DNA of 64,000 nt from contig OZ242296.1 of assembly GCA_965207735.1 (NCBI GenBank), positions 2,208,001 through 2,272,000 of the forward strand, given 5' to 3'. A model generated the notes under the pieces. That model was not told where the DNA came from. It searched no databases and worked only from the letters and a program-made list of their open reading frames with translations. Each line of letters opens with the position of its first letter. Position 1 is the first letter of the stretch. Positions 5,620-63,152 of the stretch are shown one piece after another. Origin of the DNA: Candidatus Versatilivorator sp. GTDB lineage: Bacteria > Acidobacteriota > Terriglobia > Versatilivoradales > Versatilivoraceae. The translations under genes were made by a program, and so were the position numbers.

Positions 5620-6485
5620 ATGCCTTTCCATGGGCTTACGCCCACGGCTACCTGCTGCCGCCGCCTTCGCGGCTCGGGGTTGGGGGCATCGTTTTCCATG
5701 GGCTTACGCCCACGGCTACCTGCTGGCGCCGCCTTCGCGGCTCCGCTGGAACCCCCCGGCTCGCGCCCGGGGGACAATTCATCGAATAGTCGCCGGCCCC
5801 CAGCTTGTGTCGCATTTCGGCCAGTGCGCCGATTGATTGGCTGGGTTCCAAGACTCCATTGCCTCTTCAAATCTATCCCCCTTACCCTCGGGCCTTCCTG
5901 CTGTCGCCGCCTTCGCGGCTCGGCTTTGGGGCATCTCTTTCCATGGGCTTACGCCCACGGCTACCTGCTGCCGCCGCTACGCGGCTCTATAGGAAGGCCT
6001 GCATATGTGGCGTTTTCTCATGTGAGACACACCAATCCTGGCTATGCCACGCCCCCAAATCCCCAACTCGGCGGGGAACAAGATCTGAATAGAACTTGTA
6101 GCCCAAGAGAACCCGACACGTCCGAAGCGTAGCGATCTTAAGACTTGATCCTCCCTCGGGCGCCAGCCCGAGGGCATCGAGTGGAGCGGCGAAGACGCGG
6201 CAGCAGGTAGCCGTGGGCGTAAGCCCATGGAACAGGGAGTCTTAGCGTCGAGCCGCGTAGGCGGCGACAGCAATCAGCCTTGGTGCTCGGTCTCGAACAG
6301 GTAGCTAGGATCAAAGTTGATCCGATGTTCTTTCAATAACTCCAAGGTTTTTTCCGAAACGTCTTGGTCCAATGATGGACGAATTCCCCCGGGGCGCACC
6401 CTCGGAGTTCGATCAGAGCGGCGAAGTCGTGGCAGCAGGTAGCCCCGGGCGGAAATCCCCGCTACCGAAGCCGCGTACGCGGCGA
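5620..6485. repeat. Repeat family A: GTAG-type REP cluster (GTAGCCGTGGGCGTAAGCCCATGG plus AGCCGCGAAGGCGGC hairpin)
   Basis: Copies near 5628, 5695 and 5940 in one orientation, near 6205 and a degenerate one near 6438 inverted; GTAG followed by an imperfect palindrome. Confidence 0.85.
6274..6377 (-). pseudogene. C-terminal remnant of an IS200/IS605-like (Y1/HUH) transposase
   Basis: Manual translation gives HHWTKTFRKK, a frameshift, then LELLKEHRINFDPSYLFETEHQG*, resembling the HHxxxTFxEE..LL..H.I.FD..YLF tail of these proteins; flanked by family A REPs. Confidence 0.65.
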
Positions 6486-6552
6486 ACTAATAGCGCTGTC
6501 CCAAGACCCACCACCCTTTCAAGAAAATGCCGGCCAACCCGGTCCGCCCCTT

Positions 6553-7971
6553 CTACAAGATCCTCGGCGAGAGGAAGAAGACCAGCTCGCGGGTTTCCCG
6601 GACCAGGGATCGATTGCGGAAGAGGGCGCCCACGATGGGAATTTCGCCCAGCCCGGGCACCTGGCCGCGGCTGTCCTGGCGGCTGTCGATCAGGATTCCT
6701 CCGATCGCCACCGTGCCTCCGTTGTTTACCAGGATAGTGGTGGTGGTCTGGTGGGTGTTGACAGTGGGAATCCCCTGGACCTGGCGGGAAAAATCGGGTG
6801 TGGAATTTTCGATGTCCACGCTCAGCAGGATGGCGTCCTGCCGGGTGATCTGGGGGGTCACGGTGAGGCGCAGCACGAAATCGATGAAGCGGGCCGAGAC
6901 GGTGTTGTTCACGGTGGTCTGGATCGGAATCTGGATCCCCTGCTTGACCACCCCTTCCACGTTGTTCTGGGTCAGGATCTTGGGCTTGGAGAGCAGCTTG
7001 GCGTTCCCCTTGCGCTCGGCGGCGGTGATGAGGGCGTCGAGGACGAAGTCGGCCGCCAGGCCTGCGGCAAGAGTGAGGGGGCGGGCGGCTGCGCCGGTTT
7101 GCAGGTCGAGGCTCAGCCGCGACCGCTGCTCCCCCGAGGCCGATTCTCCGCCGGAGGCGGGAGCATCCAGCAGCGGAAAGGGGCTGAAGGCCGGCGCCGA
7201 GCCCGATCCTTCCTGCTGCCCTGTCCGGGCCTGCCGCCCGTAGAGGGCGCTCCACTGGACCCCGATGTCCTGCAGGAAACTCCGGCTGGCAGCCACTACC
7301 CGGGCTTCGATCTCCACCTGGCGGACCTTGCGGTCCAGCTCCCGCAAGAGGGCGTCCACCGCCTCCAGCCTGGGCGGAATGTCCGAAACGACCAGGGCGT
7401 TGGTGCGTTCATCCACGATGATGTCTCCGCGGGGGGAGAGCGCCTTCTTGAGGATGGGGCTCAATTCCGCGGCCTTGGCGAAGCTGGGCCGGCGAATCCG
7501 CGTCTCCAGGTCGGCCGCCGCCACTCTGGCCTGGGCCAGCCGCTGTTGCTGCTGCTGTTCCGCCTCCAGGGTCGAGAGCCTGGAGATCCTGAGCACGTTG
7601 CCGCTCAAGTGCCTGGCCATGCCCTGGTTCTCCAGCACCACCTCCAGAGCCTGGTCCCAGGGCACCTCCTTGAGGAATAGGGTGAGGGACCCTTCCACGT
7701 CGGGGTCCAGGACGATGTTGAGGCCGCTGATGCCGCCGATGAGGCGAAAGAAGTCCTTGAGGTCGGCGTCCTTCAGCTGCAGCGAGATTCGTTCCCCGGA
7801 GTAGGCAACCTTCTCCGTGGAAGCCGGAGGCCGCGCTTCGGCGGCGGGCTCGGGTTTCGGCCCGCCGGACTCCTCCGCGCCACTCCAGCCCCATGGCCCA
7901 GCCGCCCCCTGCCAGCAAAGCCAGAGCCCGCAGCCCCACAGGGCCAGGCGAAGTCGGGATTCAGTTCGCAT
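6553..7971 (-). CDS. pilQ: Type IV pilus secretin
   Basis: YSGERISLQLKDADL, VPWDQAL, QVEIEARVV, VPGLGEIPIVGALFR; start re-called at MRTESRL overlapping the upstream stop. Confidence 0.9.
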   Translation of the reverse strand: MRTESRLRLALWGCGLWLCWQGAAGPWGWSGAEESGGPKPEPAAEARPPASTEKVAYSGERISLQLKDADLKDFFRLIGGISGLNIVLDPDVEGSLTLFLKEVPWDQALEVVLENQGMARHLSGNVLRISRLSTLEAEQQQQQRLAQARVAAADLETRIRRPSFAKAAELSPILKKALSPRGDIIVDERTNALVVSDIPPRLEAVDALLRELDRKVRQVEIEARVVAASRSFLQDIGVQWSALYGRQARTGQQEGSGSAPAFSPFPLLDAPASGGESASGEQRSRLSLDLQTGAAARPLTLAAGLAADFVLDALITAAERKGNAKLLSKPKILTQNNVEGVVKQGIQIPIQTTVNNTVSARFIDFVLRLTVTPQITRQDAILLSVDIENSTPDFSRQVQGIPTVNTHQTTTTILVNNGGTVAIGGILIDSRQDSRGQVPGLGEIPIVGALFRNRSLVRETRELVFFLSPRIL

Positions 7972-9019: not shown

Positions 9020-10311
9020 TTGACTTACGGGACAGCGAGTTTCTCCCTACCGGCTCAACTGCGGGCTGGGCCCTCTCGCGACGCCGAGTTTGCCCCCCTC
9101 CGGCTCGACTGCGGGCGGAGCACTTTCGCGACGCCGAGTATGCCCCCCTCCGGCTCGACTGCGGGCGGAGCACTTTCGCGACGCCGAGTATGCCCCCCTC
9201 CGGCTCGACTGCGGGCTCCGCCCTCTCGCCGACTCCCCCTCAAGGGGGGAGTGATACTTGAGGCTTGCAGGGGGCGCCTTGCCCGATTCCTGGGCGGGAT
9301 GTAAACCATGTTCCCGGTCTAAAGTGTAAACGCCGTTCCCGGTTAGTACCCGGTATCACTCCCCCCTTGAGGGGGAGTCGCAGAAGTCGAGCCGAATGGC
9401 GAAGGCTGATGCGGTGGGGGGCCAGACGCCGGCGCAGCTTTGGGGCAACGCGTGCCCTTGAAGCAGGTCCGTCTCGCTTTGTGGCTCTGCGAGCACTGCC
9501 GATCGTCACTTACGGAACGCCGAGTCTGCCTCCCTCCGGATCGACTGCGGGCGGAGCACTTTCGCGACGCCGAGTATGCCCCCCTCCGGCTCGACTGCGG
9601 GCTCCGCCCTCTCGCCGACTCCCCCTCAAGGGGGGAGTGATACTTGAGGCTTGCAGGGGGCGCCTTGCCCGATTCCTGGGCGGGATGTAAACCATGTTCC
9701 CGGTCTAAAGTGTAAACGCCGTTCCCGGTTAGTACCCGGTATCACTCCCCCCTTGAGGGGGAGTCGCAGAAGTCGAGCCGAATGGCGAAGGCTGATGCGG
9801 TGGGGGTCAACCAACGCCTGGTACACTGTCTCCAGAACATCCATGCAGCTCTGAAACACCTCGTTGTTCCAAAAGCGCAATATTCTGTACCCCTTGCCCC
9901 GCAAATAATCATCGCGCTTCTCGTCGTAGGCGTGCCGTTCCCCATGCTGGCCGCCGTCCAGCTCGATCACCAACTTTCGGGACATGCAGGCGAAATCTAC
10001 GATGTAGGGACCTATCGGTTGCTGGCGCCGGAACTTGTAGCCGGCCAGTTGTTTCCTGCTCAGATAGTGCCACAGCAGGCCTTCTGCGTCGGTCTGTTCT
10101 TGGCGCAGAGTCTTTGCTCTTTCAAGTGTTTGCCGGGTGTAGGCGCGCATCATTCCCCCCACCTGTTGGTAGTCACTCTCGCGACGCCGCGTCTGCCCCC
10201 CTCCGGATCGACCGCGGGCTTCGCACTCTAGCGACGCCGAGTTTGCCCCCCTCCGGATCGACTGCGGGCTGCGCCCTTGTCTCTCCGACTCCCCCTCAAG
10301 GGGGGAGTGAT
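9020..10311. repeat. Repeat family B cluster (ACTCCCCCTCAAGGGGGGAGTGAT hairpins in alternating orientation) enclosing the DUF559 gene
   Basis: Hairpins near 9232, 9355, 9618, 9741 and 10288; 386-bp tandem period; 26-bp perfect inverted pair 9741-9766 / 10286-10311. Confidence 0.9.
9626..10153 (-). CDS. DUF559 / Vsr-like endonuclease; C-terminus reads on into the flanking repeat
   Basis: RAKTLRQEQTDAEGLLW..L...QLAGYKFRRQQPIGPYIVDFAC...LVIELDGGQH.......RDDYL...GYRILRFWNNEV; start at MMRAY, domain ends near 9805. Confidence 0.9.
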   Translation of the reverse strand: MMRAYTRQTLERAKTLRQEQTDAEGLLWHYLSRKQLAGYKFRRQQPIGPYIVDFACMSRKLVIELDGGQHGERHAYDEKRDDYLRGKGYRILRFWNNEVFQSCMDVLETVYQALVDPHRISLRHSARLLRLPLKGGVIPGTNRERRLHFRPGTWFTSRPGIGQGAPCKPQVSLPP

Positions 10312-14739: not shown

Positions 14740-15570
14740 ATCTCACTTACGGGACGCCGCGTCTGCCCCCCTCCGGCTCGACTGCGGGCTCCGCCCTCTC
14801 GCCGACTCCCCCTCAAGGGGGGAGTGATACTCGAGGCCTGCATGGGGCGCCTTGCCGGATTCCCGGGTAGGGTGTAAACCATGTTCCCGGTTTAATGCAT
14901 CAACTCCGTTCCCTCTTCATAACACGGGATCACTCCCCCCTTGAGGGGGAGTCGCAGAAGTCGAGCCGAATGGCGAAGGCTGATGCGGTGGGGGGCGGTC
15001 GCCGGCGCGGCTTTGGGGCAACGCGTGCCGTTGAAGCAGGTCCGTCTCGCTTTGTGGCTCTGCGAGTACTGCCGATTGCCGCTTACGGGACGCCGAGTCT
15101 GCCCCCCTCCGGCTCGACTGCGGGCTCCGCCCTCTCGCCGACTCCCCCTCAAGGGGGGAGTGATACTCGAGGCCTGCATGGGGCGCCTTGCCGGATTCCC
15201 GGGTAGGGTGTAAACCATGTTCCCGGTTTAATGCATCAACTCCGTTCCCTCTTCATAACACGGGATCACTCCCCCCTTGAGGGGGAGTCGCAGAAGTCGA
15301 GCCGAATGGCGAAGGCTGATGCGGTGGGGGGCGGTCGCCGGCGCGGCTTTGGGGCAACGCGTGCCGTTGAAGCAGGTCCGTCTCGCTTTGTGGCTCTGCG
15401 AGTACTGCCGATCGTCACTTTCGGGACGCCGAGTCTGCCCCCTCCGGCTCGACTGCGGGCTCCGCCCTCTCGCCGACTCCCCCTCAAGGGGGGAGTGATA
15501 CTCGAGGCTTGCATGGGGCGCCTTGCCCGATTCGCGGGCGGGGTGTAAACCATGTTTCCGGGTTAATGTG
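14740..15570. repeat. Repeat family B tandem array (about 336-bp period)
   Basis: Near-identical units offset by 336 bp with hairpins near 14804, 14928, 15141, 15265 and 15476. Confidence 0.9.
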
Positions 15571-15586
15571 TGGACGATGCCCCCCC

Positions 15587-18615: not shown

Positions 18616-18626
18616 AAGGAGTAGTG

Positions 18627-20130
18627 CCCCCCCGGGAGCGCGGGCGTCTCGCCCGCATTCGACTTGGCATGATGGAAACGATCCCCCTAAGGGTGAGTTG
18701 GGTGCGCTTTGCGAGGGAGTGGCCGGGGGCGGCAGACTGTTTGCAGGAATTCGGTTGCGGGCGGGACGCCCGCGTTCCCGGGGGGGCCATTCCTTTGCCG
18801 GTTTCCCGTGCGTCCATACTTCGTTGGCGACTTGGCGCACCGCACCTATTTCTTGGACCATTCTCGCTTTGGAGGCAATACGGCTCGTGAAGAAAGACCA
18901 CCCGGGAGCGCGGGCGTCTCGCCCGCACAAGGCCTGGCACGAACGTGGCTACCTCCCGCACTTCGATGAAGCGGGAACGGTGCAATTTCTCACTTTCCGC
19001 CTTGTTGACGCGGTTCCCGCCGCGACAGTCACCGCCTGGAAAACCGAACTGAAGCTCAGTGGCGGTGAAACGGCCGACGATCCCCGCTGTGCGCGCCTTC
19101 GCGGCCGAATCGAGCGTTTCGCCGACCAGGGACACGGCGCCTGCTGGCTGAAAGACGCCCGCGCCGCGCAGGTGGTCCAGGATGCGCTGCTGCATTTTGA
19201 CGGTGAGCGGTATCGGCTTCTGGCGTGGGTCATCATGCCCAATCACGTGCATGCGGTAATCGAGACACTGCCCGGCTTTCCCTTGGACGGGGTCATTCAC
19301 TCCTGGAAGTCGTTCACTGCCAAGCGGGCCAATCGACTCTTGGGCCGGACTGGCGCCTTCTGGATGGGAGACTACTTCGACCGCTATGTCCGCGATGAGG
19401 CACATCTCTGGGACGTAATGCGTTACATGGAAGAGAACCCCGCAAAGGCGGGTTTGGTGCGCTTCGCAAGGGAGTGGCCGTGGATGGGAGGCTGTCTACA
19501 GGAATAAGACCCACCCGGGAGCGCGGGCGTCTCGCCCGCACAAGGCCTGGCACCATGGAAACGATCCCCCTAAAGGTGAGTTGGGTGCGCTTTGCGAGGG
19601 AATGGCCGCGGACGGCAGGCGGCTTGCAGGAATAAGGTTGCGGGCGGGACGCCCACCCGGGAGCGCGGGCGTCTCGCCCGCACAAGGCTCGGCACCATGG
19701 AAACGATCCCCCTAAAGGTGAGTTGGGTGCGCTTTGCGAGGGAATGGCCGCGGACGGCAGGCGGCTTGCAGGAATAAGGTTGCGGGCGGGACGCCCACCC
19801 GGGAGCGCGGGCGTCTCGCCCGCACAAGGCTCGGCACGAAGGAAACGATCCCCCTGAAGGTGAGTTGGGTGCGCTTTGCGAGGGAATGGCCGTGGATGGG
19901 AGGCTGTTTGCAGGAATAGGGTTGCGGGCGGGACGCCCGCGTTCCCGGGGGTTTGGTGCACTATGCGAGGGAATGGCCGTGGATGGGAGGCTGTTTGCAG
20001 GAATAAGGTTGCGGGCGAGACGCCCGCGTTCCCGGGGGTTGGTGCACTGTGCGTGGGAATGGCCCTGGACCGCAGGCTGTTTGCAGGAATAAGGTTGCGG
20101 GCGGGACGCCCGCGCTCCCGGGGGGGCCTT
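18627..20130. repeat. Repeat family C: REP/REPIN-like cluster around the RAYT gene (CCCGGGAGCGCGGGCGTCTCGCCCGCA and inverse), 142-bp tandem units downstream
   Basis: Paired inverted REPs at about 18630/18757 and tandem units from about 19514 with 142-bp period. Confidence 0.9.
18887..19507 (+). CDS. REP-associated tyrosine transposase (RAYT, Y1/HUH family)
   Basis: WHERGYLPH, FLTFRL, WVIMPNHVH (HUH), WKSFTA, FW..DYFDRYVRD, Y.EENP.KAGL; GGAGG then GTG at 18887; flanked by REPs. Confidence 0.92.
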   Translation: MKKDHPGARASRPHKAWHERGYLPHFDEAGTVQFLTFRLVDAVPAATVTAWKTELKLSGGETADDPRCARLRGRIERFADQGHGACWLKDARAAQVVQDALLHFDGERYRLLAWVIMPNHVHAVIETLPGFPLDGVIHSWKSFTAKRANRLLGRTGAFWMGDYFDRYVRDEAHLWDVMRYMEENPAKAGLVRFAREWPWMGGCLQE

Positions 20131-31503: not shown

Positions 31504-31552
31504 ACAGTATATTGCCGACCTGGTTTGCTTTGAACAGGTTGAGGATTTCCTT

Positions 31553-32231
31553 TAACCCCCATCACGATTCTTCTCCGAGCCCTCCGTGGAAATCTTTTTC
31601 CCGTTTCCCCCCTTCCCAATCCCTGGCAACCCCCTCTCGAATTACCTCCGACGCCTTCGTGCCCCTTCGTGGTCCTTCGTGCCCCTTCGTGGAAATCTGT
31701 TAACGCCGCCACGATTCTTCTCGGACCCCCTTCGTGGAAATCCCTTCACCCCCGTCACGATTCTTCTCCGAACCCTCCGTGGACATCTTTTCCCCTTTTC
31801 ACCCCTTCCCGAACCCTGGCAACCCCCTCTCGAATTACCTCCGATGCCTTAGTGCCCCTTCGTGGTCCTTCGTGCCCGTTCGTGGAAATCTGTTAACCCC
31901 CGTCACGATTCCCCTCCGAACCCTCCGTGGAAATCATTTTCCCTTTTCTCCCCTTCTCGATCCGTGGCAACCCCCTCTCGAATTACCTCCGATGCCTTAG
32001 TGCCCCTTCGTGGTCCTTCGTGCCCCTTCGTGGAAATCTGTTAACCCCCGTCACGATTCCCCTCCGAACCCTCCGTGGAAATCTTTTTCCCTTTTCTCCC
32101 CTTCCCGATCCGTGGCAACCCCCTCTCGAATTACCTCCGACGCCTTAGTGCCCCTTCGTGGTCCTTCGTGCCCCTTCGTGGAAATCTGTTAACCCCCGTC
32201 ACGATTCCCCTCCGGACCCCCTTCGTGGATT
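31553..32231 (-). repeat. Repeat family D array, inverted orientation, 148-bp period
   Basis: CCCCTTCGTGGTCCTTCGTGCCCCTTCGTGGA units with 148-bp spacing; ends a few bp from the cyclase stop. Confidence 0.9.
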
Positions 32232-40734: not shown

Positions 40735-41212
40735 AAGATTTCCACCAGGCGGATCCACGAAGGACGCGGAGGGATCGGAGGAGAATCGTGACGGGGGTTA
40801 AAGGATTTCCACGAAGGGGCACGAAGGCGTTGGGGGTGGATCGGGAGGGGGTTGCCAGGGTTCGGAAGGGGGAAAAGGGAAAAAGATTTCCACGAAGGGG
40901 GTCCGAGGGGAATTGTGACGGGGGTTAACAGATTTCCACGAAGGGGCACGAAGGCGTTGGGGGTGGATCGAAAGGGGGTTGCCAGGGTTCGGGAAGGGCA
41001 AAAAGGGGAAAAGATGTCCACGGAGGGTTCGGAGGTGAATCGTGACGGGGGTGAAGGGATTTCCACGAAGGGGGTTCGGAGAGGAATTGTGACGGGGGTT
41101 AACAGATTTCCACGAAGGGGCACGAAGGTCCACGAAGGGGCACTAAGGCGGCGGAGGTGGATCGAGAGGGGGTTGCCAGGGTTCGGGGAGGGGGAAAAGA
41201 TTTCCACGGAGG
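40735..41212 (+). repeat. Family D array
   Basis: TTTCCACGAAGGGGCACGAAGG and GTGACGGGGG units. Confidence 0.85.
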
Positions 41213-41214: not shown

Positions 41215-41880
41215 TGCCGATCGCCACTTACGGGACGCCGAGTTTGCCCCCCTCCGGCTCGACTGCGGGCTCCGCCCTCTCGCCGACTCCCCCTCAAGGG
41301 GGGAGTGATACTTGAGGCCTGCACAAGACCTCTTGCCCGATTCCTGGGCGGGGTGTAAACCATGTTCCCGGTCCAATGGGTAAACGCCGTTCCCGGTTAG
41401 TGCCGCGGGTATCACTCCCCCCTTGAGGGGGAGTCGCAGAAGTCGAGCCGAATGGCGAAGGCTGATGCGGTGGGGGGCGGACGCCGGCGCGGCTTTGGGG
41501 GCAACGCGTGCCGTTGAAGTAGGTCCGTCTCGCTTCGCGGCTCTGCGAGCACTGCCGGTCGCCGCTTACGGGACGCCGAGTCTGCCCCCCTCCGGCTCGA
41601 CTGCGGGCTCCGCCCTCTCGCCGACTCCCCCTCAAGGGGGGAGTGATACTCGAGGCTTGCATGGGGCGCCTTGCCTGATTCCTGGGCGGGGTGTAAACCA
41701 TGTTCCCGGTCCAATGGGTAAACGCCGTTCCCGGTTAGTGCCGCGGGTATCACTCCCCCCTTGAGGGGGAGTCGGAGAAGCCGAGCCGAATGGCGAAGGC
41801 TGATCCGGAGGGGGGCCAACGCGGCGTCCCGAGAGTGCTCCTCCCGCCGTCGATCCAGAGGGGGGCAGACGCCACCTACC
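41215..41880. repeat. Family B tandem array (about 338-bp period)
   Basis: Hairpins near 41286, 41411, 41624 and 41749. Confidence 0.88.
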
Positions 41881-41914
41881 GGGGATCACAACCCTTCCCG
41901 GTAATCAATTCCGC

Positions 41915-42139
41915 TTACCGAAGAATTTTGCAAATGGCTCTCTTCAGTGTCACGTCTTTGTACCGAACTGAGATCGGCGTTTGAGCAACAAAAGGGATCT
42001 TCCTGGCTCTCAACTCGATTTCCAGGGCTTCCTGGTAAATCGATTCCAGAAAGCCCGGGCCAAGCTCGCGATGCACCTCAATCGCAGCTCCCACAACGGC
42101 GTACACTTCGTCTTTCAATATCAAATCCGACACTGCCAA
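41915..42139 (-). pseudogene. Truncated GxxExxY protein (PD-(D/E)XK-like nuclease family)
   Basis: YAVVGAAIEVHRELGPGFLESIYQEALEIEL....IPF..Q..I.V.YK with the GxxExxY motif; only 74 aa, lacking the expected D...IVELK half. Confidence 0.85.
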
Positions 42140-42169: not shown

Positions 42170-42387
42170 CAGGCGCCAACCCCTCCCGGTTCTGCATAGA
42201 CTCCCTTCGTGGATATCTTTTTCCTTTTCCTTCGCGACCCCTGGCAACCCCCTCCCGATCCTCCTCCAACCCCTTAGTGCCCCTTCGTGGACCTTCGTGC
42301 CCCTTCGTGGAAAAGTCTTTTTACCCCGTCAGGTTCTGCACGGACCCGCTTCGTGGCACTTCGTGGCGCTTCGCGGCCCTTCGTGGA
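42170..42387 (-). repeat. Family D array between gspD and the GxxExxY gene
   Basis: On the minus strand the gspD stop TGA is followed directly by TCCACGAAGGGCCGCGAAGCGCCACGAAG. Confidence 0.85.
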
Positions 42388-48595: not shown

Positions 48596-49690
48596 TCAGT
48601 GGCCGCCGACGGGCACCGCCACCTCGAAGGTTTTCGAGCCCCAGGGACCCTGGCCGTTCCAGCGCAGGCTGAGCTGGATGCCGGAGGGGAGTTGGGGCCG
48701 GAAGGCACGCCCGGGGCGGCGCCTGAAACGCCGCGGATCGATCCGGGACCCAAGCGGGAACCTCTCTTCCCGCGGCCGGGCCAGCGTGCGGAACGCCACC
48801 GATGACAGTCCCTCGGCCAGGGTCAGAGAACGGGGGCCGGGCCGAGGCAGAGACAGATTGGCCAGGAAGCGGTTGTCCTCGGTTTGAGTGACACCCCGGA
48901 TGACGGGGCCCCTCAGCCGGGCCTCCGGGGGCAGCGGGCGTTCGTTGAGCAGCAGGCGGCGGCCGGTGGCGCCGGAGCCGGGATCGGAGTTGGCCGCGAA
49001 GACCTGCACGAACCGCAGCCCTCCGGCGAAGCCCGAGGCGGCCGACCAGGTGGTGACGAAGCCCAGGCTTCGGGAGGTGGCCCGGAAAAGCAGCACCGGC
49101 ACCGGCCGGCCTTCGTGGTCCTGGCTGGAGACGTAGGGCGCCATGGAGGCGATCTGGCGGCTGAGGACGTCCAGGGAAGCGTTGGAGGCCTGCCAGGCCT
49201 CCAGGGAAGCCTCGGCCTTCTCCCGGGCGCTAAGCCCTACGCTGTAGCCCAGGTGGATGAAGACCGCCACCAGCCCGATGAGGGAGAAGCTCACCAGCAG
49301 TTCCATGAGGGTGAAGCCGGGGGCAAGCGATGATTGCTGCCGCCGCCTACGCGGCTCGGAGCGTGGGGCTGACGTTATCCATGGGCTTACGCCCACGGCT
49401 ACCTGCTGCCGCCGCTGCGCGGCTCGGTTGGAACCCTCAGCGTGGCGCCCCTTCGCAACTCCAATGGCCCCCGCGGGCCGGGGCCCCTTCGCGGCTCGGC
49501 TTGTAGCCCACGGCTGGGAGCACTTCGCGGCTATATTCGATCTCCAAGGCCGGCGCTGCATCGCGGCTCGGCTTGTAGCCCTGGGCGTGTGCCCGGGGGT
49601 GATTTGTTTATGATTTCCGGTTTGTCTCATTGGGTGTTGCGGCACGTTGGCGGGCCAGGGCCGGCATCTCTTTCCTTCTTCCTCCTTCAT
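48596..49690 (-). CDS. gspJ: Type II secretion minor pseudopilin J-like; leader region contains a family A REP, true start uncertain
   Basis: G/FTLMELLV prepilin motif near 49320; between gspI and gspK. Confidence 0.72.
   Translation of the reverse strand: MKEEEGKRCRPWPANVPQHPMRQTGNHKQITPGHTPRATSRAAMQRRPWRSNIAAKCSQPWATSRAAKGPRPAGAIGVAKGRHAEGSNRAAQRRQQVAVGVSPWITSAPRSEPRRRRQQSSLAPGFTLMELLVSFSLIGLVAVFIHLGYSVGLSAREKAEASLEAWQASNASLDVLSRQIASMAPYVSSQDHEGRPVPVLLFRATSRSLGFVTTWSAASGFAGGLRFVQVFAANSDPGSGATGRRLLLNERPLPPEARLRGPVIRGVTQTEDNRFLANLSLPRPGPRSLTLAEGLSSVAFRTLARPREERFPLGSRIDPRRFRRRPGRAFRPQLPSGIQLSLRWNGQGPWGSKTFEVAVPVGGH
49335..49430. repeat. Family A REP inside the gspJ leader
   Basis: CCATGGGCTTACGCCCACGGCTACCTGCTGCCGCCG near 49379. 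Confidence 0.85.
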
Positions 49691-49769
49691 CTAGATCGCT
49701 CGAACGGGGAAAAAGTCGAAAGAGGGGGCAAGAAAGGACGACGAACCGCAAATGGACACGAAAAAAAGA

Positions 49770-50545
49770 GATATCCACGAAGGGCCACCAAGAACGGCGA
49801 AGGGCCACCAAGCGGTACGGAGCTGCTTCAACGGCACGCGGCGCCTGCCCCCCACCGGATCGACGGCGGGCTGCGCCCTTGTCTCTCCGACTCCCCCTCA
49901 AGGGGGGAGTGATACTCGAGGCTTGCATGGGGCGCCTTGCCCGATTTCTGGGCAGGATGTAAACCATGTTCCCGGTTTAATGTGTAAACGCCGTTCCCGG
50001 TTAGTGCCCGCTATCACTCCCCCCTTGAGGGGGAGTCGCAGAAGCCGAGCCGAATGGCGAAGGCTGATGCGGAGGGGGGCCAACTCGGCGTCTCCGAACG
50101 GTAGCGCCGAATGGTGAAGGCTGATGCGGTGGGGGGCGGACGCCGGCGCAGCTTTGCGGCAACGCGTGCCGTTGAAGCAGGTCCGTCTGGCTTTGCGGCT
50201 CTGCGAGTACTGCCGATTGCCACTTACGCGACGCCGAGTCTGCCCCCCTCCGGATCGACGGCGGGCGGAGCCCTTGTCTCTCCGACTCCCCCTCAAGGGG
50301 GGAGTGATACTTGAGGCTTGCATGGGGCGCCTTGCCCGATTCCTGGGCAGGATGTAAACCATGTTCCCGGTTTAATGTGTAAACGCCGTTCTCGGTTAGT
50401 GCCCGCTATCACTCCCCCCTTGAGGGGGAGTCGCAGAAGCCGAGCCGAATGGCGAAGGCTGATGCGGTGGGGGGCCAACTCGGCGTCTCCGAACGGTAGA
50501 GCCGTATGGCGAAGGCTGATGCGGTGGGGGGCATACGCCGGCGCT
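49770..50545. repeat. Family D unit plus family B array between gspI and gspJ
   Basis: ATCCACGAAGGGCCAC near 49773; hairpins near 49890, 50013, 50285 and 50408. Confidence 0.85.
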
Positions 50546-50584
50546 CCCGGGGGGATCTCTTTCCGGGGAGCATGCCGGAGCCGG

Positions 50585-51016
50585 TCATTGTTCGCGCGGG
50601 ACGGGGACCCAGGTCATGGTCTCCAATGAATAGCGGTTCTCGGACCCGCTGCCCGGCCAGGCGACCTGCAGCCGGACCCGGGCCAGCCGGTAGGCTCTGC
50701 GGGGCCCTTCCTCCTCGTCGCCGCCGGCGGCTTCGATCTGGGCCCGCCAGCGGTACTTGCCGCCGAACTCCCCCGAGCGGGCCGCCGGCTCCCTGCCCTG
50801 CCGCAGAGCCAGGCAGATCTCATTGAGCTTCATCTGGGCGTTGCGGACCAGCGTCTCGCGGTCCTCAATGCGGGAGACCGACTGCAGCGAGCCCGACAGC
50901 ACTCCGAACAGCGCCACAAAACCCACTCCCAGGATGGTCACGGCCACCAGCACTTCTATCAGGGTGAAACCCTGGGCGGCGGGCTTGGAAGCAGGTTTTC
51001 GGGCCATCGGCAGCAT
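50585..51016 (-). CDS. gspI: Type II secretion minor pseudopilin I, copy 1
   Basis: QG/FTLIEVLVAVTIL prepilin motif; purine-rich RBS. Confidence 0.8.
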   Translation of the reverse strand: MLPMARKPASKPAAQGFTLIEVLVAVTILGVGFVALFGVLSGSLQSVSRIEDRETLVRNAQMKLNEICLALRQGREPAARSGEFGGKYRWRAQIEAAGGDEEEGPRRAYRLARVRLQVAWPGSGSENRYSLETMTWVPVPREQ

Positions 51017-51149
51017 CTCTCTTCCCTTCCCCTTAGAGCGTTTGAATCGCAAGAAAGTCGAAAGAGGCGTCGGGGATTGTGGATTTTGGATTGTAGGTTA
51101 TCGATTTGGGGCGCATTCAGACGTCGTAGGTCCCAATCGACTGATGGTC

Positions 51150-51930
51150 GCTCACGGGACGCCGGGTTGGCCCCCCTCTGGCTCGACGGCGGGCTGCGCT
51201 TTCTCGCGACGCCGAGTCTGCCCCCCACCGGATCGACGGCGGGCTGCGCCCTGTGGTAGTCACTCTCGGGGCGCCGAGTCTGCCCCCCTCCGGATCGACG
51301 GCGGGCTGCGCCCTTGTCTCTCCGACTCCCCCTCAAGGGGGGAGTGATACTCGAGGCTTGCATGGGGCGCCTTGCCCGATTCCTGGGCAGGGTGTAAACC
51401 ATGTTCCCGGTCTAACGCATAAACTCCGTTCCCCCTTCATAACACGGATATCACTCCCCCCTTGAGGGGGAGTCGCAGAAGTCGAGCCGAATGGCGAAGG
51501 CTGATGCGGTGGGGGGCGGACGCCGGCGCGGCTTTGCGGCAACGCGTGCCGTTGAAGCAGGTCCGTCTGGCTTTGCGGCTCTGCGAGTACTGCCGATTGA
51601 CACTTTCGGGACGCCGAGTCTGCCCCCCTCCGGATCGACGGCGGGCTGCGCCCTTGTCTCTCCGACTCCCCCTCAAGGGGGGAGTGATACTTGAGGCTTG
51701 CATGGGGCGCCTTGCCCGATTCCTGGGCAGGATGTAAACCATGTTCCCGGTTTAATGTGTAAACGCCGTTCTCGGTTAGTGCCCGCTATCACTCCCCCCT
51801 TGAGGGGGAGTCGCAGAAGCCGAGCCGAATGGCGAAGGCTGATGCGGTGGGGGGCCAACTCGGCGTCTCCGAACGGTAGAGCCGTATGGCGAAGGCTGAT
51901 GCGGTGGGGGGCATACGCCGGCGCTCCCGG
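51150..51930. repeat. Family B array inside the 1380-bp duplication
   Basis: Hairpins near 51324, 51450, 51665 and 51788; 51605-52417 matches 50225-51037. Confidence 0.85.
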
Positions 51931-51964
51931 GGGGATCTCTTTCCGGGGAGCATGCCGGAGCCCG

Positions 51965-52396
51965 TCATTGTTCGCGCGGGACGGGGACCCAGGTCATGGT
52001 TTCGAGTTGGTAGCGGTTCTCGGACCCGCTGCCCGGCCAGGCGACCTGCAGCCGGACCCGGGCCAGCCGGTAGGCTCTGCGGGGCCCTTCCTCCTCGTCG
52101 CCGCCGGCGGCTTCGATCTGGGCCCGCCAGCGGTACTTGCCGCCGAACTCCCCCGAGCGGGCCGCCGGCTGCCTGCCCTGCCGCAGAGCCAGGCAGATCT
52201 CATTGAGCTTCATCTGGGCGTTGCGGACCAGCGTCTCGCGGTCCTCAATGCGGGAGACCGACTGCAGCGAGCCCGACAGCACTCCGAACAGCGCCACAAA
52301 ACCCACTCCCAGGATGGTCACGGCCACCAGCACTTCCATCAGGGTGAAACCCTGGGCGGCGGGCTTGGAAGCAGGTTTTTGGGCCATCGGCAGCAT
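51965..52396 (-). CDS. gspI: Type II secretion minor pseudopilin I, copy 2
   Basis: Copy of 50585-51016 offset by 1380 bp with four visible amino-acid differences (R/Q, I/M, E/Q, S/Q). Confidence 0.8.
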   Translation of the reverse strand: MLPMAQKPASKPAAQGFTLMEVLVAVTILGVGFVALFGVLSGSLQSVSRIEDRETLVRNAQMKLNEICLALRQGRQPAARSGEFGGKYRWRAQIEAAGGDEEEGPRRAYRLARVRLQVAWPGSGSENRYQLETMTWVPVPREQ

Positions 52397-52417
52397 CTCT
52401 CTTCCCTTCCCCTTAGA

Positions 52418-54346
52418 CCGAAGTTCCTCCCATTTTACACCCAAAAAATCGCCTTAAGCCATTTGTTTTCTTGGGGAAGAGGATTGAGGCGTGTGGAGTG
52501 TTGTTCCCATGTATATGATTAGCATTTATCTTGACATGATAGTTGTATGTGATATCGTAGTCCCATGTACGTCGAAACCGTCCCCAACCGCAACTCTCCC
52601 CCTGCCATCCTCCTGCGCGAAGGCCGCCGTGAGGGTAAAAAGGTCCATAAACGCACCCTGGCCAATCTCTCCCATTGGCCCAAGGACAAGATCGAGCGCC
52701 TCCGGCGCGTGCTCAAGAACGAACCCCTGGTCCATCCCGACCAACTCTTCGCCATCGAACGCTCCCTGCCTCATGGCCACGTCGAGTTGCTGCTGGAAGT
52801 GGTGCGGCAGCTGAAGCTGCCGGCGCTGATCGATTCCCGACCCTCTCCCCAACGGGACCGGGTCTTGGCCATGATCCTGCAGCGTCTGCTCTATCCGGCC
52901 TCCAAGCTGGCCACCACCCGTCTTTGGCACACCACCACGTTGGGTGAGGAACTGTCCCTTGAGGACACCGACGAGGACGATCTCTATGAGGCCATGGACT
53001 GGTTGCTGGAGCGTCAGGACCGGATTGAGCGCAAGCTGGCCAAGCGGCACCTGGCGGAAGGGGATGCGGTGCTCTATGACGTCAGCAGCAGTTACTACGA
53101 AGGCCAGACCTGCTCGCTGATGCAGTTCGGCCACAACCGGGACGGCAGGCGGGACCGGCCCATGGTGGTCTACGGGGTGCTGGCCGACCAGATGGGGCGG
53201 CCGCTGTCGGTGCAGGCCTATGCCGGCAACACGGGGGATCCGACCACGGTGGGGGATCAGGTGGAGAAGGTGCGGGGTCGGTTTGGTCTGGAGCGGGTGG
53301 TGCTGGTGGGGGACCGCGGGCTGCTGACCGAGACGCAGATCAGCCATCTGAAGCGTCATCCGGGAGTGGGGTGGGTCTCAGCCCTGCGCCACCACCAGAT
53401 ACGCCGTCTGGTGGAGAGCGAGGCGGTTCAGCTCTCCCTGTTCGACGAGCGTCATCTGGCCGAAGTCCGCAGCCCGGACTATCCGGGCGAGAGGCTCATC
53501 GTCTGCCACAACCCGCTGCTGGCCGAGCATCGGCGGCGGAAGCGGGAGGCTTTGCTGACAGCCACCGAGGAGGCGCTGGCCGGAATCGCCCGCCAGGTGG
53601 CCAGACGGACCCGCACGCCCTTGTCGGCGACCGAGATCGCCGAGAAAGTCGGCCGGGTCAAGAACCGCTTCCAGGTGGCCAAACACTTCCGGACCCAGAT
53701 CGCAGACGGGTCCTTCCACTATGAACGGCGCACCGACGCCATCATCCGGGAGGCGCAACTGGACGGGTTCTACATGCTGAGGACCAGCGAGCCAGCCGAT
53801 CGCCTGCCAACAGCCGCGGTGGTGCGCCGCTACAAGGACCTGACGCGGGTGGAGCGGGCCTTCCGCTCCCTCAAGACCGTCGACCTGCACATCCGCCCCA
53901 TCCGTCATCGGGTGGAGAGCCGGGTGCGGGCTCATCTGTTCCTGTGCCTGCTGGCCTATTACGTTCAGTGGCATCTGCGGCTGGCCCTGGCTCCGTTGCT
54001 GTTCGATGACGAGGAGTTGGAAGCGGAACGGGCACGGCGAGACCCGGTGCTGGCGGCCCAGCCGTCGGACTCCGCCAAACGGAAGAAGAGCAAACGCCTC
54101 ACCGAGGACGGCTTGCCGCTGCAGAGCCTGGAGACGTTGATGGCGCAGATGGCGACGCGGGCCCGCCACCAGTGCCGATTGCCCTCCGAACCCGATGGTC
54201 CGCGAGTCCAGCGATTGACCGAGCCGACCCCGCTACAGCAAAGGGCCTTCGAGCTCATCAGGATGTTCCCAGGCAAGACAACCTGAGATTCCTGATTGAT
54301 GATTGAAGATAAAGGAGTTATCTTGTCGGTGGGTCAGGAACTTCGG
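52418..54346 (+). mobile_element. IS1634-family insertion sequence
   Basis: TIRs CCGAAGTTCCT (52418-52428) / AGGAACTTCGG (54336-54346); 6-bp TSD CTTAGA at 52412-52417 and 54347-54352; empty site at 51032-51037. Confidence 0.92.
52565..54286 (+). CDS. IS1634-family DDE transposase
   Basis: LYDVSSSYYEG, FGHNRDG, VGDRGLL, YKDL..VERAFRSLK, RPIRH....VRAHLFLC. Confidence 0.93.
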   Translation: MYVETVPNRNSPPAILLREGRREGKKVHKRTLANLSHWPKDKIERLRRVLKNEPLVHPDQLFAIERSLPHGHVELLLEVVRQLKLPALIDSRPSPQRDRVLAMILQRLLYPASKLATTRLWHTTTLGEELSLEDTDEDDLYEAMDWLLERQDRIERKLAKRHLAEGDAVLYDVSSSYYEGQTCSLMQFGHNRDGRRDRPMVVYGVLADQMGRPLSVQAYAGNTGDPTTVGDQVEKVRGRFGLERVVLVGDRGLLTETQISHLKRHPGVGWVSALRHHQIRRLVESEAVQLSLFDERHLAEVRSPDYPGERLIVCHNPLLAEHRRRKREALLTATEEALAGIARQVARRTRTPLSATEIAEKVGRVKNRFQVAKHFRTQIADGSFHYERRTDAIIREAQLDGFYMLRTSEPADRLPTAAVVRRYKDLTRVERAFRSLKTVDLHIRPIRHRVESRVRAHLFLCLLAYYVQWHLRLALAPLLFDDEELEAERARRDPVLAAQPSDSAKRKKSKRLTEDGLPLQSLETLMAQMATRARHQCRLPSEPDGPRVQRLTEPTPLQQRAFELIRMFPGKTT

Positions 54347-54464
54347 CTTAGAGCGTTTGAATCGCAAGAAAGTCGAAAGAGGCGTCGGGGATTGTGGATT
54401 TTGGATTGTAGGTTATCGATTTGGGGCGCATTCAGACGTCGTAGGTCCCAATCGACTGATGGTC

Positions 54465-55005
54465 ACTCACGGGACGTTGCGTTGGCCCCCCTCCGGATCG
54501 ACGGCGGGCTTCGCTTTCTCGCGACGCCGAGTCTGCCCCCCACCGGATCGACGGCGGGCTGCGCCCTTGTCTCTCCGACTCCCCCTCAAGGGGGGAGTGA
54601 TACTCGAGGCTTGCAGGGGGCGCCTTGCCCGATTGCTGGGCGGGGTGTAAACCATGTTCCCGGTCTAATGGGTAAACGTCGTTCTCGGTTAGTGCCCGCT
54701 ATCACTCCCCCCTTGAGGGGGAGTCGCAGAAGTCGAGCCGAATGGCGAAGGCTGATGCGGTGGGGGGCGGACGCCGGCGCGGCTTCGGGGCAACGCGTGC
54801 CGTTGAAGCAGGTCCGTCTCGCTTTGTGGCTCTACGAGTACTGCCGATTGCCACTTACGCGACGCCGCGTTGGCCCCCCTCCGGATCGACTGCGGGCTGC
54901 GCCCTTGTCTCTCCGACTCCCCCTCAAGGGGGGAGTGATACTCGAGGCTTGCACAGAGCGCCTTGCCCGATTCGCGGGCAGGATGTAAACCATGTTCCCG
55001 GTTTG
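54465..55005. repeat. Family B array downstream of gspH
   Basis: Hairpins near 54578, 54701 and 54915. Confidence 0.85.
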
Positions 55006-55043
55006 ATGGGTGGATATCTCTTTTTGTCCGAGGCACGACGTTG

Positions 55044-55547
55044 CTAATTCTCTTGTGGAGGGGCCTGCAGGATTCGGGGTGAGCGGCTGAAGGCCTGCTG
55101 CACCACTCGGAGGGAGCGGCCGCGGGCATTGACCAGCCGGATTTCGAGGGCCTGGGAGAGGCCGCTGGGAGCAAAGTAGAAGTCGGTGCGCTCGGGCGGC
55201 GGGCCCGGCCGAGGCGGGGTCCCGTCCAGCAGCAGCGCCTCCTGCAGGCGGACGCCCGGCGGAAGCTGAAAGGACCGCTGGAACTCCAGGTCCCCGCTGG
55301 CCACGGTCACCCGGCGCTGCTCCCGGTCCAGGCTCACCAGGTGAATCTCCTGGCTCCGGATGGCCCGGCCCCGGGCAAGTCGTAGGGCGGCCGCCACATG
55401 GCGGGCGGCGCTCTGCAGGCGCAGGGTCTGGATGCCGGCTCCGGCGACGGGCACGGCCACCGCCGTGATGATCCCCACCAGCACCAGCACCACCAACATC
55501 TCCAGCAGTGTGAAGCCGGCCCGGTTTCTTGTCGATGGGTGTGCCAT
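55044..55547 (-). CDS. gspH: Type II secretion minor pseudopilin H (FimT-like)
   Basis: AG/FTLLEMLVVLVL motif, LRLARGRAI, F.PSG; start at MAHPST. Confidence 0.82.
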   Translation of the reverse strand: MAHPSTRNRAGFTLLEMLVVLVLVGIITAVAVPVAGAGIQTLRLQSAARHVAAALRLARGRAIRSQEIHLVSLDREQRRVTVASGDLEFQRSFQLPPGVRLQEALLLDGTPPRPGPPPERTDFYFAPSGLSQALEIRLVNARGRSLRVVQQAFSRSPRILQAPPQEN

Positions 55548-55602
55548 TGAGGTCCTTGGCTGCGTTTCCGTGGCTTGCGATCGGCGTGTGCCCAACGCTA
55601 TT

Positions 55603-56260
55603 TGCTGTCGCCGCCTTCGCGGCTCGGCTCTCGCCGTAACCCTTTCCATGGGCTTACGCCCACGGCTACCTGCTGCCGCGGCTTCGCCGCTCGGCTCGTA
55701 ATGCCGATCGCCACTTTCGCGACGCCGCGTTGGACTCCCACTGGATCGACTTTGGGGCAACGGGTGCCGTTGAAGCAGGTCCGCCTCGCTTCGCGGCTCT
55801 GCGAGTACTGCCGATCGTCACTTACGGGACGCCGAGTCTGCCCCCCTCCGGATCGACGGCGGGGCAACGCGTACCGTTGAAGCAGGTGCGTCTGGCTTTG
55901 CGGCTCTGCGAGTAATGCCGATCGCCACTTTCGCGACGCCGAGTCTGCCCCCCTCCGGATCGACGGCGGGCTTCGCCCTTGTCTCTCCGACTCCCCCTCA
56001 AGGGGGGAGTGATACTTGAGACTTGCATGGGGCGCCTTGCCCGATTCCTGGGCAGGATGTAAACCATGTTTCCGGTTTAATGTGTAAACGCCGTTCCCGG
56101 TTAGTGCCCGCTATCACTCCCCCCTTGAGGGGGAGTCGCAGAAGCCGAGCCGAATGGCGAAGGCTGATGCGGTGGGGGGCCAACTCGGCGTCTCCGAACG
56201 ATAGCGCCGAATGGCGAAGGCTGATGCGGTGGGGGGCGGACTCCGGCGCGGCTTTGGGGG
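55603..56260. repeat. Family A REP followed by family B array between gspG and gspH
   Basis: REP near 55646; hairpins near 55990 and 56113. Confidence 0.85.
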
Positions 56261-58094: not shown

Positions 58095-58430
58095 TGAATG
58101 AACATGGATGCACAGGATGCACAGGATTTTTTGTCATCGACCGCCTTGTCCCAGAAGCGGACATCGAGCGTGTCGTATCGCAAGAGTGAGCTTCCCGTGC
58201 AGTAGCGTCCCGTCCTGGTTATCCTGTTCATCCTGTTAATCCATGTTCTTATGTTTTTGATTAACATGGATGCACAGGATGCACAGGATTTTTTCTGGAA
58301 ACGGCTAGCCTGTTTACCTGAGCATCCGCAATCCCGCACCGGTTCATCGCCCGAGTGAGCTTCTCATGCAGCAGCCTCTCATCCTGGACATCCTGTTAAT
58401 CCTGTATATCCTGTGCATCGATGTTAAATA
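58095..58430. repeat. Repeat family E: two inverted-repeat cassettes (AACATGGATGCACAGGATGCACAGGAT ... ATCCTGTTCATCCTGTTAATCCATGTT)
   Basis: 9-bp periodic ACAGGAT units near 58103 and 58265 with reverse complements near 58221 and 58381; a partial unit also at 1-15. Confidence 0.8.
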
Positions 58431-61536: not shown

Positions 61537-62120
61537 GATTTCCTCCCTGGATCTTCGTTCAGGATAGTCTTGAGCCGGCTCAGCCCCAGGTACATCCGGG
61601 ACTTGGCGGTGCTCAGCGGACACCCTGCAATACCTGCAATCTCATCGAAGCGGAGTCCTTCGAATACTTTGAGGACCACCGCCTCCCGCTGCTCGAAGGA
61701 GAGCCGGTCCAGCGCCCCCTCCATCAACAGGCGAAGCTCGGCCGGCTCCAGTTCCTGCAGATCTCCCAGGCGCGCCGGCGACCGCTTCGGCTGAAGCGCG
61801 TCCAGGCCCTGCGGTCCCGGTCCTTCGCCGTCCTCGGCCCGGCGCTGCCTGGTGCGGAAGTGGGCCAGGCAGTAGTTGCGGGCGATGGTGAACAGCCACC
61901 CGGCGAACCGGGCAGGATCCTGGAGCCGGTCCAGTTGCTGAAAGGCCTTGAGAAAGGTGTCCTGGCAAACGTCCAGCGCATCCTCGCGGTTCCCTGTCAA
62001 GCGGAAGGCGTAGTTGAAGAGCCGCTTCTCCCATCGGCTCACCAGGAGATTGAAGGCGCCGGTGTCACCGCGAGCCGCTCTGGCTACCAGATCCTTATCG
62101 GTCAGTCGTACCAGCTCCAA
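61533..62120 (-). CDS. ECF-family RNA polymerase sigma factor
   Basis: DALDVCQDTFLKA, FAGWLFTIARN, L..EQREAVVL....GL.FDEIA...GCPLSTAKSR. Confidence 0.95.
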   Translation of the reverse strand: MELVRLTDKDLVARAARGDTGAFNLLVSRWEKRLFNYAFRLTGNREDALDVCQDTFLKAFQQLDRLQDPARFAGWLFTIARNYCLAHFRTRQRRAEDGEGPGPQGLDALQPKRSPARLGDLQELEPAELRLLMEGALDRLSFEQREAVVLKVFEGLRFDEIAGIAGCPLSTAKSRMYLGLSRLKTILNEDPGRKS

Positions 62121-62218
62121 GTGAGCTCCTCACAGTGACGAGATGAACGGCACCGGCAAAAAGTCTAACTTGCCCGCATAAATGCTGGTCCAGGAAGAAA
62201 TAGAGTGATCCACCGAGG

Positions 62219-63152
62219 AGTGAGAAAGGCCATTGGGTTGCCCTGCGCTTCACGTGGGCCTGCCGGTGTTTGCTGCCGCCGCATTCGCGGCTCCACTCCC
62301 GTACGTTACGTTTCCGATGCACGTTTCCCATGGGCTGACGCCCACGGCTACCTGCTGGCGCCGCATTCGCGGCTCTCAGGGAAGCCGTCTCAAGATGCGT
62401 ATTGCAGGTGAGGAAGGCCATTGCGTTGCCCTGCGCTTCACGTGGGCTCGCCGGTGTTTGCTGCCGCCGCATTCGCGGCTCTCAGGGAAGCCGTCTCAAG
62501 ATGCGTATTGCAGGTGAGAAACGCTATTGCGTTGCCCTGGGCTTCACGTGGGCTCACCGGTGTTTGCTGCCGCCGCATTCGCGGCTCCACTCCCGTACGT
62601 TACGTTTCCGATGCACGTTTCCCATGGGCTGACGCCCACGGCTACCTGCTGGCGCCGCATTCGCGGCTCTCAGGGAGGCCGTCTCAAGATGCGTATTGCA
62701 GGTGAGAAACGCCATTGCGTTGCCCTGCGCTTCACGTGGGCTCACCGGTGTTTGCTGCCGCCGCATTCGCGGCTCCACTCCCGTTCGGTACGTTTCCGAT
62801 GCACGTTTCCCATGGGCTGACGCCCACGGCTACCTGCTGGCGCCGCATTCGCGGCTCTCAGGGAAGCCGTCTCAAGATGCGTATTGCAGGTGAGAAACGC
62901 CATTGCGTTGCCCTGCGCTTCACGTGGGCTCACCGGTGTTTGCTGCCGCCGCATTCGCGGCTCCACTCCCGTTCGTTACGTTTCCGATGCACGTTTCCCA
63001 TGGGCTGACGCCCACGGCTACCTGCTGGCGCCGCATTCGCGGCTCTCAGGGAGGCCGTCTCAAGATACGTATTGCAGGTGAGAAACGCCATTGCGTTGCC
63101 CTGCGCTTCACGTGGGCTCACCGGCATTTGCTGCCGCCGCATTCGCGGCTCG
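62219..63152. repeat. Tandem array of 188-bp units carrying a family A REP variant
   Basis: Near-identical units with 188-bp period plus one 106-bp partial; CCCATGGGCTGACGCCCACGGCTAC four times. Confidence 0.92.

Follow-up and report, generated by a model that had tools for sequence, protein, structure and literature searches.

Minimal cassettes of small genes and cognate inverted repeat arms in a Candidatus Versatilivorator genome

The window described here is the whole 64-kb stretch G000:C1:2208001-2272000 of a 5.26-Mb single-contig genome of Candidatus Versatilivorator (G000), in which small genes of four enzyme families, Y1/HUH, DUF559, RAYT and GxxExxY, are each accompanied by their own family of intergenic repeats (A, B, C and D, respectively). 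Comparisons across genomes showed that gene and arms form a cassette and that such cassettes decay to gene-less arms. We proposed that every one of the enzyme genes forms the centre of a minimal cassette, composed of one small gene and two inward-facing family-specific arms, and that its protein likely recognizes and nicks its own arms and would in this way seed gene-less copies; on balance, we lean slightly towards this reading. An earlier note on this DNA had described four enzyme genes each with its own repeat family, and all four were found, DUF559 and RAYT intact, Y1 and GxxExxY only in part. Labels of the form L### denote individual gene loci, and other G### labels denote the other genomes compared.

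Recurrent pairing of small genes and arms

Inverted arms were scored by comparing the 200 nt upstream of each gene with the reverse complement of the 200 nt downstream, using the 99th percentile of shuffled sequences as the threshold. The loci were the best-scoring hits per genome with the window DUF559 included, and kin among them are not independent; 14 weak or in-protein DUF559 hits (L041-L050 and L057-L060), three RAYT loci (L024-L026), three GxxExxY fragments (L085-L087) and three loci with short flanks were all excluded before counting. Inverted arms were present at 30/37 DUF559, 44/56 GxxExxY and 19/27 Y1 loci and at 26/29 loci of a four-helix-bundle gene, compared with 1/30 loci of the control Uma2, another small solo PD-(D/E)XK protein. 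Further GxxExxY (36 of 46) and four-helix loci (15 of 18) also passed. The class is wider than the earlier note had stated, as it includes a four-helix-bundle protein with heptamer arms. Among the loci with inverted arms, 8-10-nt tandem arrays occurred at 30/44 for GxxExxY and tandem arrays, mostly of 7 nt, at 23/26 for the four-helix gene, and hairpins were found at 16/30 DUF559 and 10/19 Y1 loci; when an arm was matched with the nearest one from another genome, both came from a single protein family in 101 of 119 cases. Within G000, only 5 distinct genes of 3653 (called with our own hexamer model, with DUF559 and the four-helix gene added by hand) had same-family inverted arms within 260 bp on both sides, namely the four-helix gene, DUF559, RAYT, an internally deleted RAYT and one transporter. 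Because arm type follows protein family and clade and the pairings are reproducible at other loci and in other genomes, they do not simply reflect random accumulation in insertion-tolerant gaps, as the earlier note had allowed they might.

The arms also followed clades within a protein family. The closest named relative of the window DUF559 (79% identity) is from Candidatus Versatilivorator (Acidobacteriota), and 45 relatives were found in named genomes, 41 of them with both flanks. A copy of the exact B arm stands on either side of the gene in 11 of the 12 relatives with at least 63% identity and in none of the 29 with 58% identity or less, most of which bear other hairpins. The hosts of these close relatives were Nitrospirales, Candidatus Binatia, a gammaproteobacterium (Pseudohongiellaceae), an unclassified bacterium and one acidobacterial record, the last probably from the same genus as our host. 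For family D, the heptamer was present on both sides in 36/78 close metagenome relatives of the D-type protein versus 6/94 GxxExxY below 55% identity. Five GxxExxY clades within the genus each carry one arm type, according to a FastTree tree that is descriptive only (64 of 102 leaves labelled; 11 changes).

The cassette proteins look functional, judging from purifying selection and conserved catalytic-type residues in the sequences. The dN/dS ratios (NG86) were 0.13-0.22 for cassette genes (for DUF559, one pair only) versus 0.11-0.33 for neighbouring host genes. Columns E17, D47, E59 and H65 were 95-100% conserved among 39 aligned DUF559 proteins, as were E24, D64, E74, K76, Q88 and Y92 among 102 GxxExxY proteins. 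DUF559 matched 3hrl, and the model of an intact D-type GxxExxY (pLDDT 95.5) matched SSO0001 best (E 5.5e-4, TM 0.62), which we take to be a Cas4 protein, followed by lambda exonuclease. In PMC3424549, DUF559 is grouped with Vsr and a homing endonuclease, and PDDEXK_3 is listed as of unknown function (papers are cited here by PMC number).

Cassettes and gene-less derivatives in the window

The genes and their arms are listed below by window position. Where Pfam gave no direct name, labels such as pilO, gspH and HsdM are our presumed assignments, in part from position.

5620-6270: family A arms, a small hairpin plus a GTAG-footed hairpin; three copies lie to one side and another faces the Y1 remnant
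6274-6354, minus strand: C-terminal Y1/HUH remnant, 26 codons, subclass-1.2 type, at the pilQ-accB junction
9741-9810, plus strand: DUF559 cassette, 3' arm with two hairpins and a G tract, overlapping the stop codon
9803-10153, minus strand: intact DUF559 (Vsr-like) gene, 116 aa, in position between pilN and pilO (PF04480, E 1.5e-41)
10174-10311, minus strand: DUF559 cassette, 5' arm with the same outer hairpin, a second hairpin that differs in sequence but not in fold, and a G tract
18626-18783: family C doublet carrying the RAYT 3' end
18887-19507, plus strand: intact class-2 RAYT/TnpA-REP gene with NHVH and Y-x-x-x-NP (PF01797; NF047646 79 bits)
40740-41200, plus strand: family D array that faces the broken GxxExxY from its 3' side
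41225-41940: B doublets, then a segment derived from an insertion sequence (IS) end (end at 41925-41940), in place of the GxxExxY 3' half
41915-42139, minus strand: truncated GxxExxY, N-terminal half (TIGR04256 positions 2-59 of 116)
42190-42386, minus strand: family D array with a 10-nt period, located 5' of GxxExxY

The DUF559 gene that the earlier note had placed at 9626 is real and intact; that position is the end of a longer overlapping open reading frame (ORF) call. Both B arms fold into two hairpins and a G tract, and the second hairpin differs in sequence between them. Compared with the cassette, the usual B unit is turned inside out: 57 doublets join the two outer ends via a spacer of about 100 nt. 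At L033 (G001) and L123 (G164), in two different families, a hairpin-armed DUF559 cassette is inserted in frame into a long ORF, which we take to be type I HsdM, and the site is the same in both.

The RAYT gene scored above the PF01797 cut-off and 79 bits against an NF047646 cut-off of 80, and its translation contains NHVH and YMEENP, the HUH motif and the catalytic tyrosine. Inverted C arms surround it, one lying within the first RAYT codons, and 25 of the 108 C copies form inward doublets. The gene occupies the same junction, after DHH, in seven genomes (G000 and six sister genomes) and is single copy in 8 of the 9 genomes with a match. No GTAG or GTGG tetranucleotide is present at the foot of the C hairpin. 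Family C is an atypical REP/TIR-type arm (repetitive extragenic palindromic; terminal inverted repeat), and together with RAYT it is a REPtron-type system. A RAYT deletion derivative at G000:C1:824208-824443 has both gene ends fused in frame, leaving a 59-codon ORF between C arms.

A Pfam search of the Y1 remnant at 6274-6354 gave no match; however, the remnant shares 54-69% identity with the C-terminal end of intact Y1 proteins at eight same-genus loci. Intact Y1 with A arms was found at the same pilQ-accB junction in two sister species (L005 and L008), and the A motif lies beside four of the eight same-genus Y1 genes, with related variant hairpins beside others. Intact family A partners have Y-x-x-Q-x-x-HH, DHxH, WQ and a C-terminal tail, of which the window keeps the tail alone. 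Y1 of subclass 1.2, for which Table 1 of PMC6006769 gives no associated REP, is thus a type to which family A extends REP-like arms. The family A partners share with that subclass the Y-x-x-Q-x-x-HH motif, the C-terminal tail and the low copy number, and differ in being flanked by NTAG-footed hairpins, with 100 copies in G000.

The window GxxExxY, which D arrays face from both sides, is cut at an IS end at 41925, and the segment that replaces its 3' half ends in the terminal repeat of a 1487-bp IS. This IS (G000:C1:105789-107275) is active, with 43 full copies and 4-bp duplications, and 230-380-bp MITEs (miniature inverted-repeat transposable elements) derived from it carry the G arms and gene ends of a GxxExxY. 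Bare G-type cassettes without IS ends were seen at L283 and L288. I-type GxxExxY cassettes (L272-L274 and L282) lie inside a larger CTAG-bounded element in G009 and G011, the ends of which are not inverted. D arms folded no better than shuffled sequences, and the folding z-scores of single arms were modest (-0.85 to -2.05). Two D-arm modules (G000:C1:2555342-2555495 and 4456519-4457094) have 9-10-bp direct repeats of similar sequence at both junctions and are possibly a site-specific element.

The four-helix-bundle gene of G000 (L258; G000:C1:242475-243230) stands between inverted heptamer arrays, and its 3' end together with the arm recurs behind it in three tandem copies. The earlier note had seen no partner for its 'family E' or for heptamer repeats. 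Our guess is that family E is the 9-mer arm pair at 58.1-58.4 kb, here called family F. This family has a partner in sister species, as do AGTGGAG-type heptamers, which flank four-helix genes in G005 and G009; the GGATTGT heptamers of the window remained without a partner among the 19 four-helix loci of the genus. GIY-YIG was considered as a further cassette partner and rejected, as G000 has only two such domains, both within long ORFs.

Gene-less copies are listed below, also by window position.

9040-9740: gene-less family B doublets and tandem arm copies beside the DUF559 cassette
14744-15576: tandem gene-less B units, 336-bp period, at a junction that holds a Y1 gene in three sister species
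19510-20124: tandem C derivatives, each an arm plus the RAYT gene end
30553-32219: inward-facing family D arrays without a gene
33410-35476: mixed gaps with A, B, C and D copies
49322-56260: A, B, C and D copies at gspJ-gspG pseudopilin gene junctions
58098-58428: 9-mer arm pairs of family F that contain the initial codons of a GxxExxY gene, at the gspE-gspF junction
62165-63157: tandem family A copies, 188-bp period

Several of these junctions are occupied in relatives: an intact GxxExxY lies at the D junction of 30.5-32.2 kb in G002 and G005, and one with F arms at the gspE-gspF junction in G005, G008 and G013. Gene-end remnants in dispersed copies nearly all adjoin the cognate arm. In G000, the RAYT 5' end is covered by up to 88 matches (the arm itself included) and its 3' end by 22; the corresponding figures are up to 32 for the 5' region of the F-type GxxExxY and 5 for the four-helix 3' end. 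Since gene-less copies keep cognate gene ends, the dispersed copies derive from cassettes.

Mechanism and competing explanations

In the sequence of events that we propose, cassettes would pass as a unit between lineages, lodge at gene junctions and decay through internal deletion or IS truncation, while their arms would multiply through tandem duplication and recombination. Nicking of the arm by its cognate protein, an HUH enzyme for A and C and a PD-(D/E)XK enzyme for B and D, would lead to copying to new sites without a fixed target duplication, and the accC-pil-gsp block may serve as a nursery in which cassette genes persist and arms pile up locally. A circle joining the outer arm ends might yield the inside-out B doublets and the unit-gene-unit layout of G010; tandem duplication and deletion would also give both. 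Recognition and nicking of the cognate REP by RAYT is established in general (PMC8266576); for DUF559 and GxxExxY, we put the chances that they recognize and nick their arms at about even.

A number of observations weigh against spread driven by the cognate protein. G000 has many copies of families A and D but no intact partner gene for either, and doublets are rare for both. No DUF559 coding ends were found in the B copies of G000, although those of G009 do carry them. Among the six genomes with at least 100 B copies, an intact solo DUF559 was found in two (162 and 151 copies) and none in G009, G012, G006 and G008 (312, 147, 115 and 100 copies; two of these genomes are fragmented); the B-richest, G009, is a complete genome and has DUF559 fragments only. 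Recent loss of DUF559, as for the A and D partners in G000, could explain such genomes. Family G lies near ends of the 1487-bp IS in 57 of 61 copies, with 4-bp duplications in 47 of 75 end pairs of the MITE carrying it, and in G009 whole G-type cassettes have moved inside this MITE; family G alone behaves as IS cargo. A comparison of 0.8 Mb of G002 with G000 gave 42 clean indels, of which 17 contained repeats; these had variable ends, 0-10-nt overlaps and extra flanking DNA, and fixed ends with a constant target duplication were seen only in the IS MITE that carries family G. In addition, the four-helix bundle has the same cassette layout and no known nuclease activity (PMC4990558). The earlier note's broader class of small nucleases with cognate repeats is borne out in that pairings recur across genomes and arms follow clade; the idea of the nuclease as mover of the repeats fares less well, as B counts and DUF559 are mismatched. 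As to excision or circles, the joints between arm copies seen in run contigs are equally explained by gene-less copies elsewhere, and an alignment-based scan of genomes gave no usable pattern.

Many of these observations fit another history, in which gene and arms merely travel together, the arms being spread by IS transposases acting on MITEs, by a resident RAYT or by host recombination and DNA uptake, and the small protein only binds the arms or serves the host. The IS cargo of family G, the I-type cassettes in the CTAG-bounded element, the B-rich genomes without DUF559, the variable indel ends and composite modules, and the four-helix bundle all speak for it. However, families A-D mostly lie away from the end of the one IS family examined (near it in A 2/100, B 6/165, C 14/108 and D 5/391), bare G-type cassettes exist, and catalytic-type residues are under purifying selection; we consider this history rather unlikely, though it carries real weight. 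The arms may instead act at the RNA level, pairing in the transcript and looping out the small gene as in 23S rRNA intervening sequences (IVSs), and serving tolerance or regulation more than movement. In Coxiella, an IVS with terminal inverted repeats, heptamer repeats and an S23p ORF is excised by RNase III (PMC4990558). Cassettes found between genes that abut in other species, and the DUF559 cassettes in frame inside the presumed HsdM ORF in two families, would suit such a role, which leaves the clade-following arm sequences and the retained nuclease-type residues unexplained; we judge it improbable as the principal explanation, and it can coexist with the cassette explanation. Independent gathering of repeats and small genes in insertion-tolerant gaps draws on the families sharing gaps more often than expected (A-D 29 versus 9.7 and C-D 28 versus 8.7; B-D was as expected, 11 versus 11.1) and on a single junction being occupied by different families in different species. 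Tolerant gaps are therefore real, yet they do not explain the bracketing of genes: only one host gene of 3653 has same-family inverted arms, the control nuclease is almost always bare and arms are clade-specific in distant lineages. For the pairing, this explanation is refuted and overall we give it very little credence, although it still describes why gaps are mixed.

The cassettes that we propose resemble several known systems. Like REPtrons, REPINs with RAYT/TnpA-REP and TIRtrons (PMC3733652, PMC6006769 and PMC8266576), they combine a low-copy gene, inverted cognate repeats, dispersed gene-less copies and tandem clusters, with gene and repeat co-varying. Unlike REPtrons, DUF559 and GxxExxY are PD-(D/E)XK folds (PF04480; PF13366/TIGR04256) and lack both the HUH motif and the catalytic tyrosine. 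In place of hairpins, the arms of D and F consist of tandem arrays of 9-10 nt, and the family C arm has no GTAG foot. Families B and D therefore have a REPtron-like layout, with arms following protein clade, and fall outside REPtrons because they have no HUH. The intrastrand-triplex repeats BoxC, PIT and TM-ECO, for which PMC4666352 reports no link to mobile elements, resemble DUF559 arms in their C tract, paired G tract and third G tract. A BoxC-like layout of these three tracts facing the gene on both sides was found at 16/37 DUF559 loci and at no Y1, GxxExxY, four-helix or Uma2 locus. Family B deviates from the strict consensus, with a second hairpin before the third tract; strict membership was rejected, as that consensus occurs 0 times in G000 and at 2 of 39 DUF559 loci.

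Terminal inverted repeats, internal-deletion derivatives and intergenic sites are shared with MITEs and ISs (PMC10969869 and PMC3184786), from which the cassettes differ in that their genes are not DDE transposases, target duplication is not constant and ends are variable. The Vsr-like homing endonuclease I-Bth0305I belongs to the same fold group as DUF559 (PMC3424549), and no intron or intein was seen and the gene is bracketed by arms. As to a specific homing site, the observations point both ways: many unrelated junctions are used, and one in-frame site is common to two families. The 23S rRNA IVS (S23p/PF05635; PMC4990558) also has a four-helix-bundle gene inside inverted ends with heptamer repeats, whereas the G000 four-helix copy lies between protein genes, outside rRNA. 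We found no literature on DUF559 or GxxExxY genes with cognate arms, most subscription papers lying beyond the reach of our search.

How most bacterial intergenic repeats spread is an open question, and in the literature surveyed only REPs have a cognate enzyme. The window offers matched enzyme-arm pairs and same-genus non-cognate controls for two very common protein families of unknown function, so the assay that has served for RAYT makes the question testable. Should the nucleases prove arm-specific, they would represent a new kind of very small DNA enzyme with sequence or structure specificity, and the REP/RAYT idea would extend to unrelated nucleases. More speculatively, and with somewhat less than even confidence, we suggest a broad class of minimal mobile cassettes, each an approximately 120-codon gene with cognate inverted arms, built independently on HUH, Vsr-like, Cas4-like and four-helix folds. 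Its two PD-(D/E)XK proteins would be arm-specific nickases that move gene-less doublets without transposase or target duplication, and might be the missing mobilizers of BoxC-type hairpins and 7-10-nt arrays, with pilus and secretion clusters as nurseries in which the cassettes persist and surface genes are rearranged by them.

Genomic setting

Families B, D, C and A are the four commonest 20-mer families of G000. Genome-wide, their motifs number 391 for D, 165 for B, 108 for C and 100 for A, nearly all intergenic, and within the window 37 for D, 28 for B, 16 for C and 14 for A; 1 Mb of order-5 Markov null sequence contained none. With 95 A-D motifs, the window ranks first among 83 genome bins (runner-up 33; median 8). 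Repeats fill most long gaps, as the earlier note had stated: at least 40% of the sequence is repeat (sequence with at least five outside copies) in 16 of the 18 non-coding gaps of at least 300 bp. Its impression of a bloom holds for the repeats and fails for the enzymes, as RAYT and solo DUF559 are each represented in G000 by a single intact gene and GxxExxY by none (genome-wide, there is one match to Y1_Tnp, one solo DUF559 and one four-helix-bundle gene, and GxxExxY is nowhere full). The note placed each enzyme gene among one main family; gaps are often mixed, with B lying between GxxExxY and the left D array, and 148 of the 450 repeat-bearing intergenic regions of G000 contain at least two families. 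Contigs of run X1, perhaps the source sample, showed no differences from the DUF559, RAYT and Y1-remnant stretches.

By Pfam and position, the window contains accC/accB, pilMNOQ-type genes, glycosyltransferases and a type II secretion/pseudopilin cluster. Within the genus, synteny extends over the accC-gspE block, which with 10-kb margins makes up 1.4% of nine near-complete genomes; with the same margins, it holds 22 of their 54 near-full Y1-1.2, RAYT, DUF559 and GxxExxY genes and none of their 20 four-helix genes. Many of the 22 are orthologous, which leaves 12 distinct junction-by-family placements. The pilN-pilO junction, for example, carries DUF559 with B arms in G000 and G010 and GxxExxY with G arms in G002 and G006, and is empty in G004, where pilN and pilO overlap and gspE and gspF are 8 bp apart; other genomes have 175-1397 bp of elements at these places. 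Proximity to the terminus is unsupported, as the cumulative GC skew extremes (0.73 and 4.51 Mb) are far from the window at 2.2 Mb. The block is only mildly mosaic, the nearest relative switching for some gsp genes, and mosaicism is a weak candidate for the cause of the nursery.

Repeats also reshape pilus and secretion operons, a pseudopilin gene having been duplicated along with a B unit: positions 50106-51037 and 51486-52417 form a 932-bp tandem duplication, 98% identical (17 mismatches), of the gene and the adjacent unit. An IS1634-family transposase (52565-54286) sits amid the pseudopilin genes, and a short ORF at 34391-34750 is built from 33-bp tandem repeats. One of the two repeat-empty gaps proved to be a Fic gene overlooked by the gene caller; a Fic-domain gene (PF02661) at 1330-2703 adjoins accC and is absent there in the mapped sister blocks.

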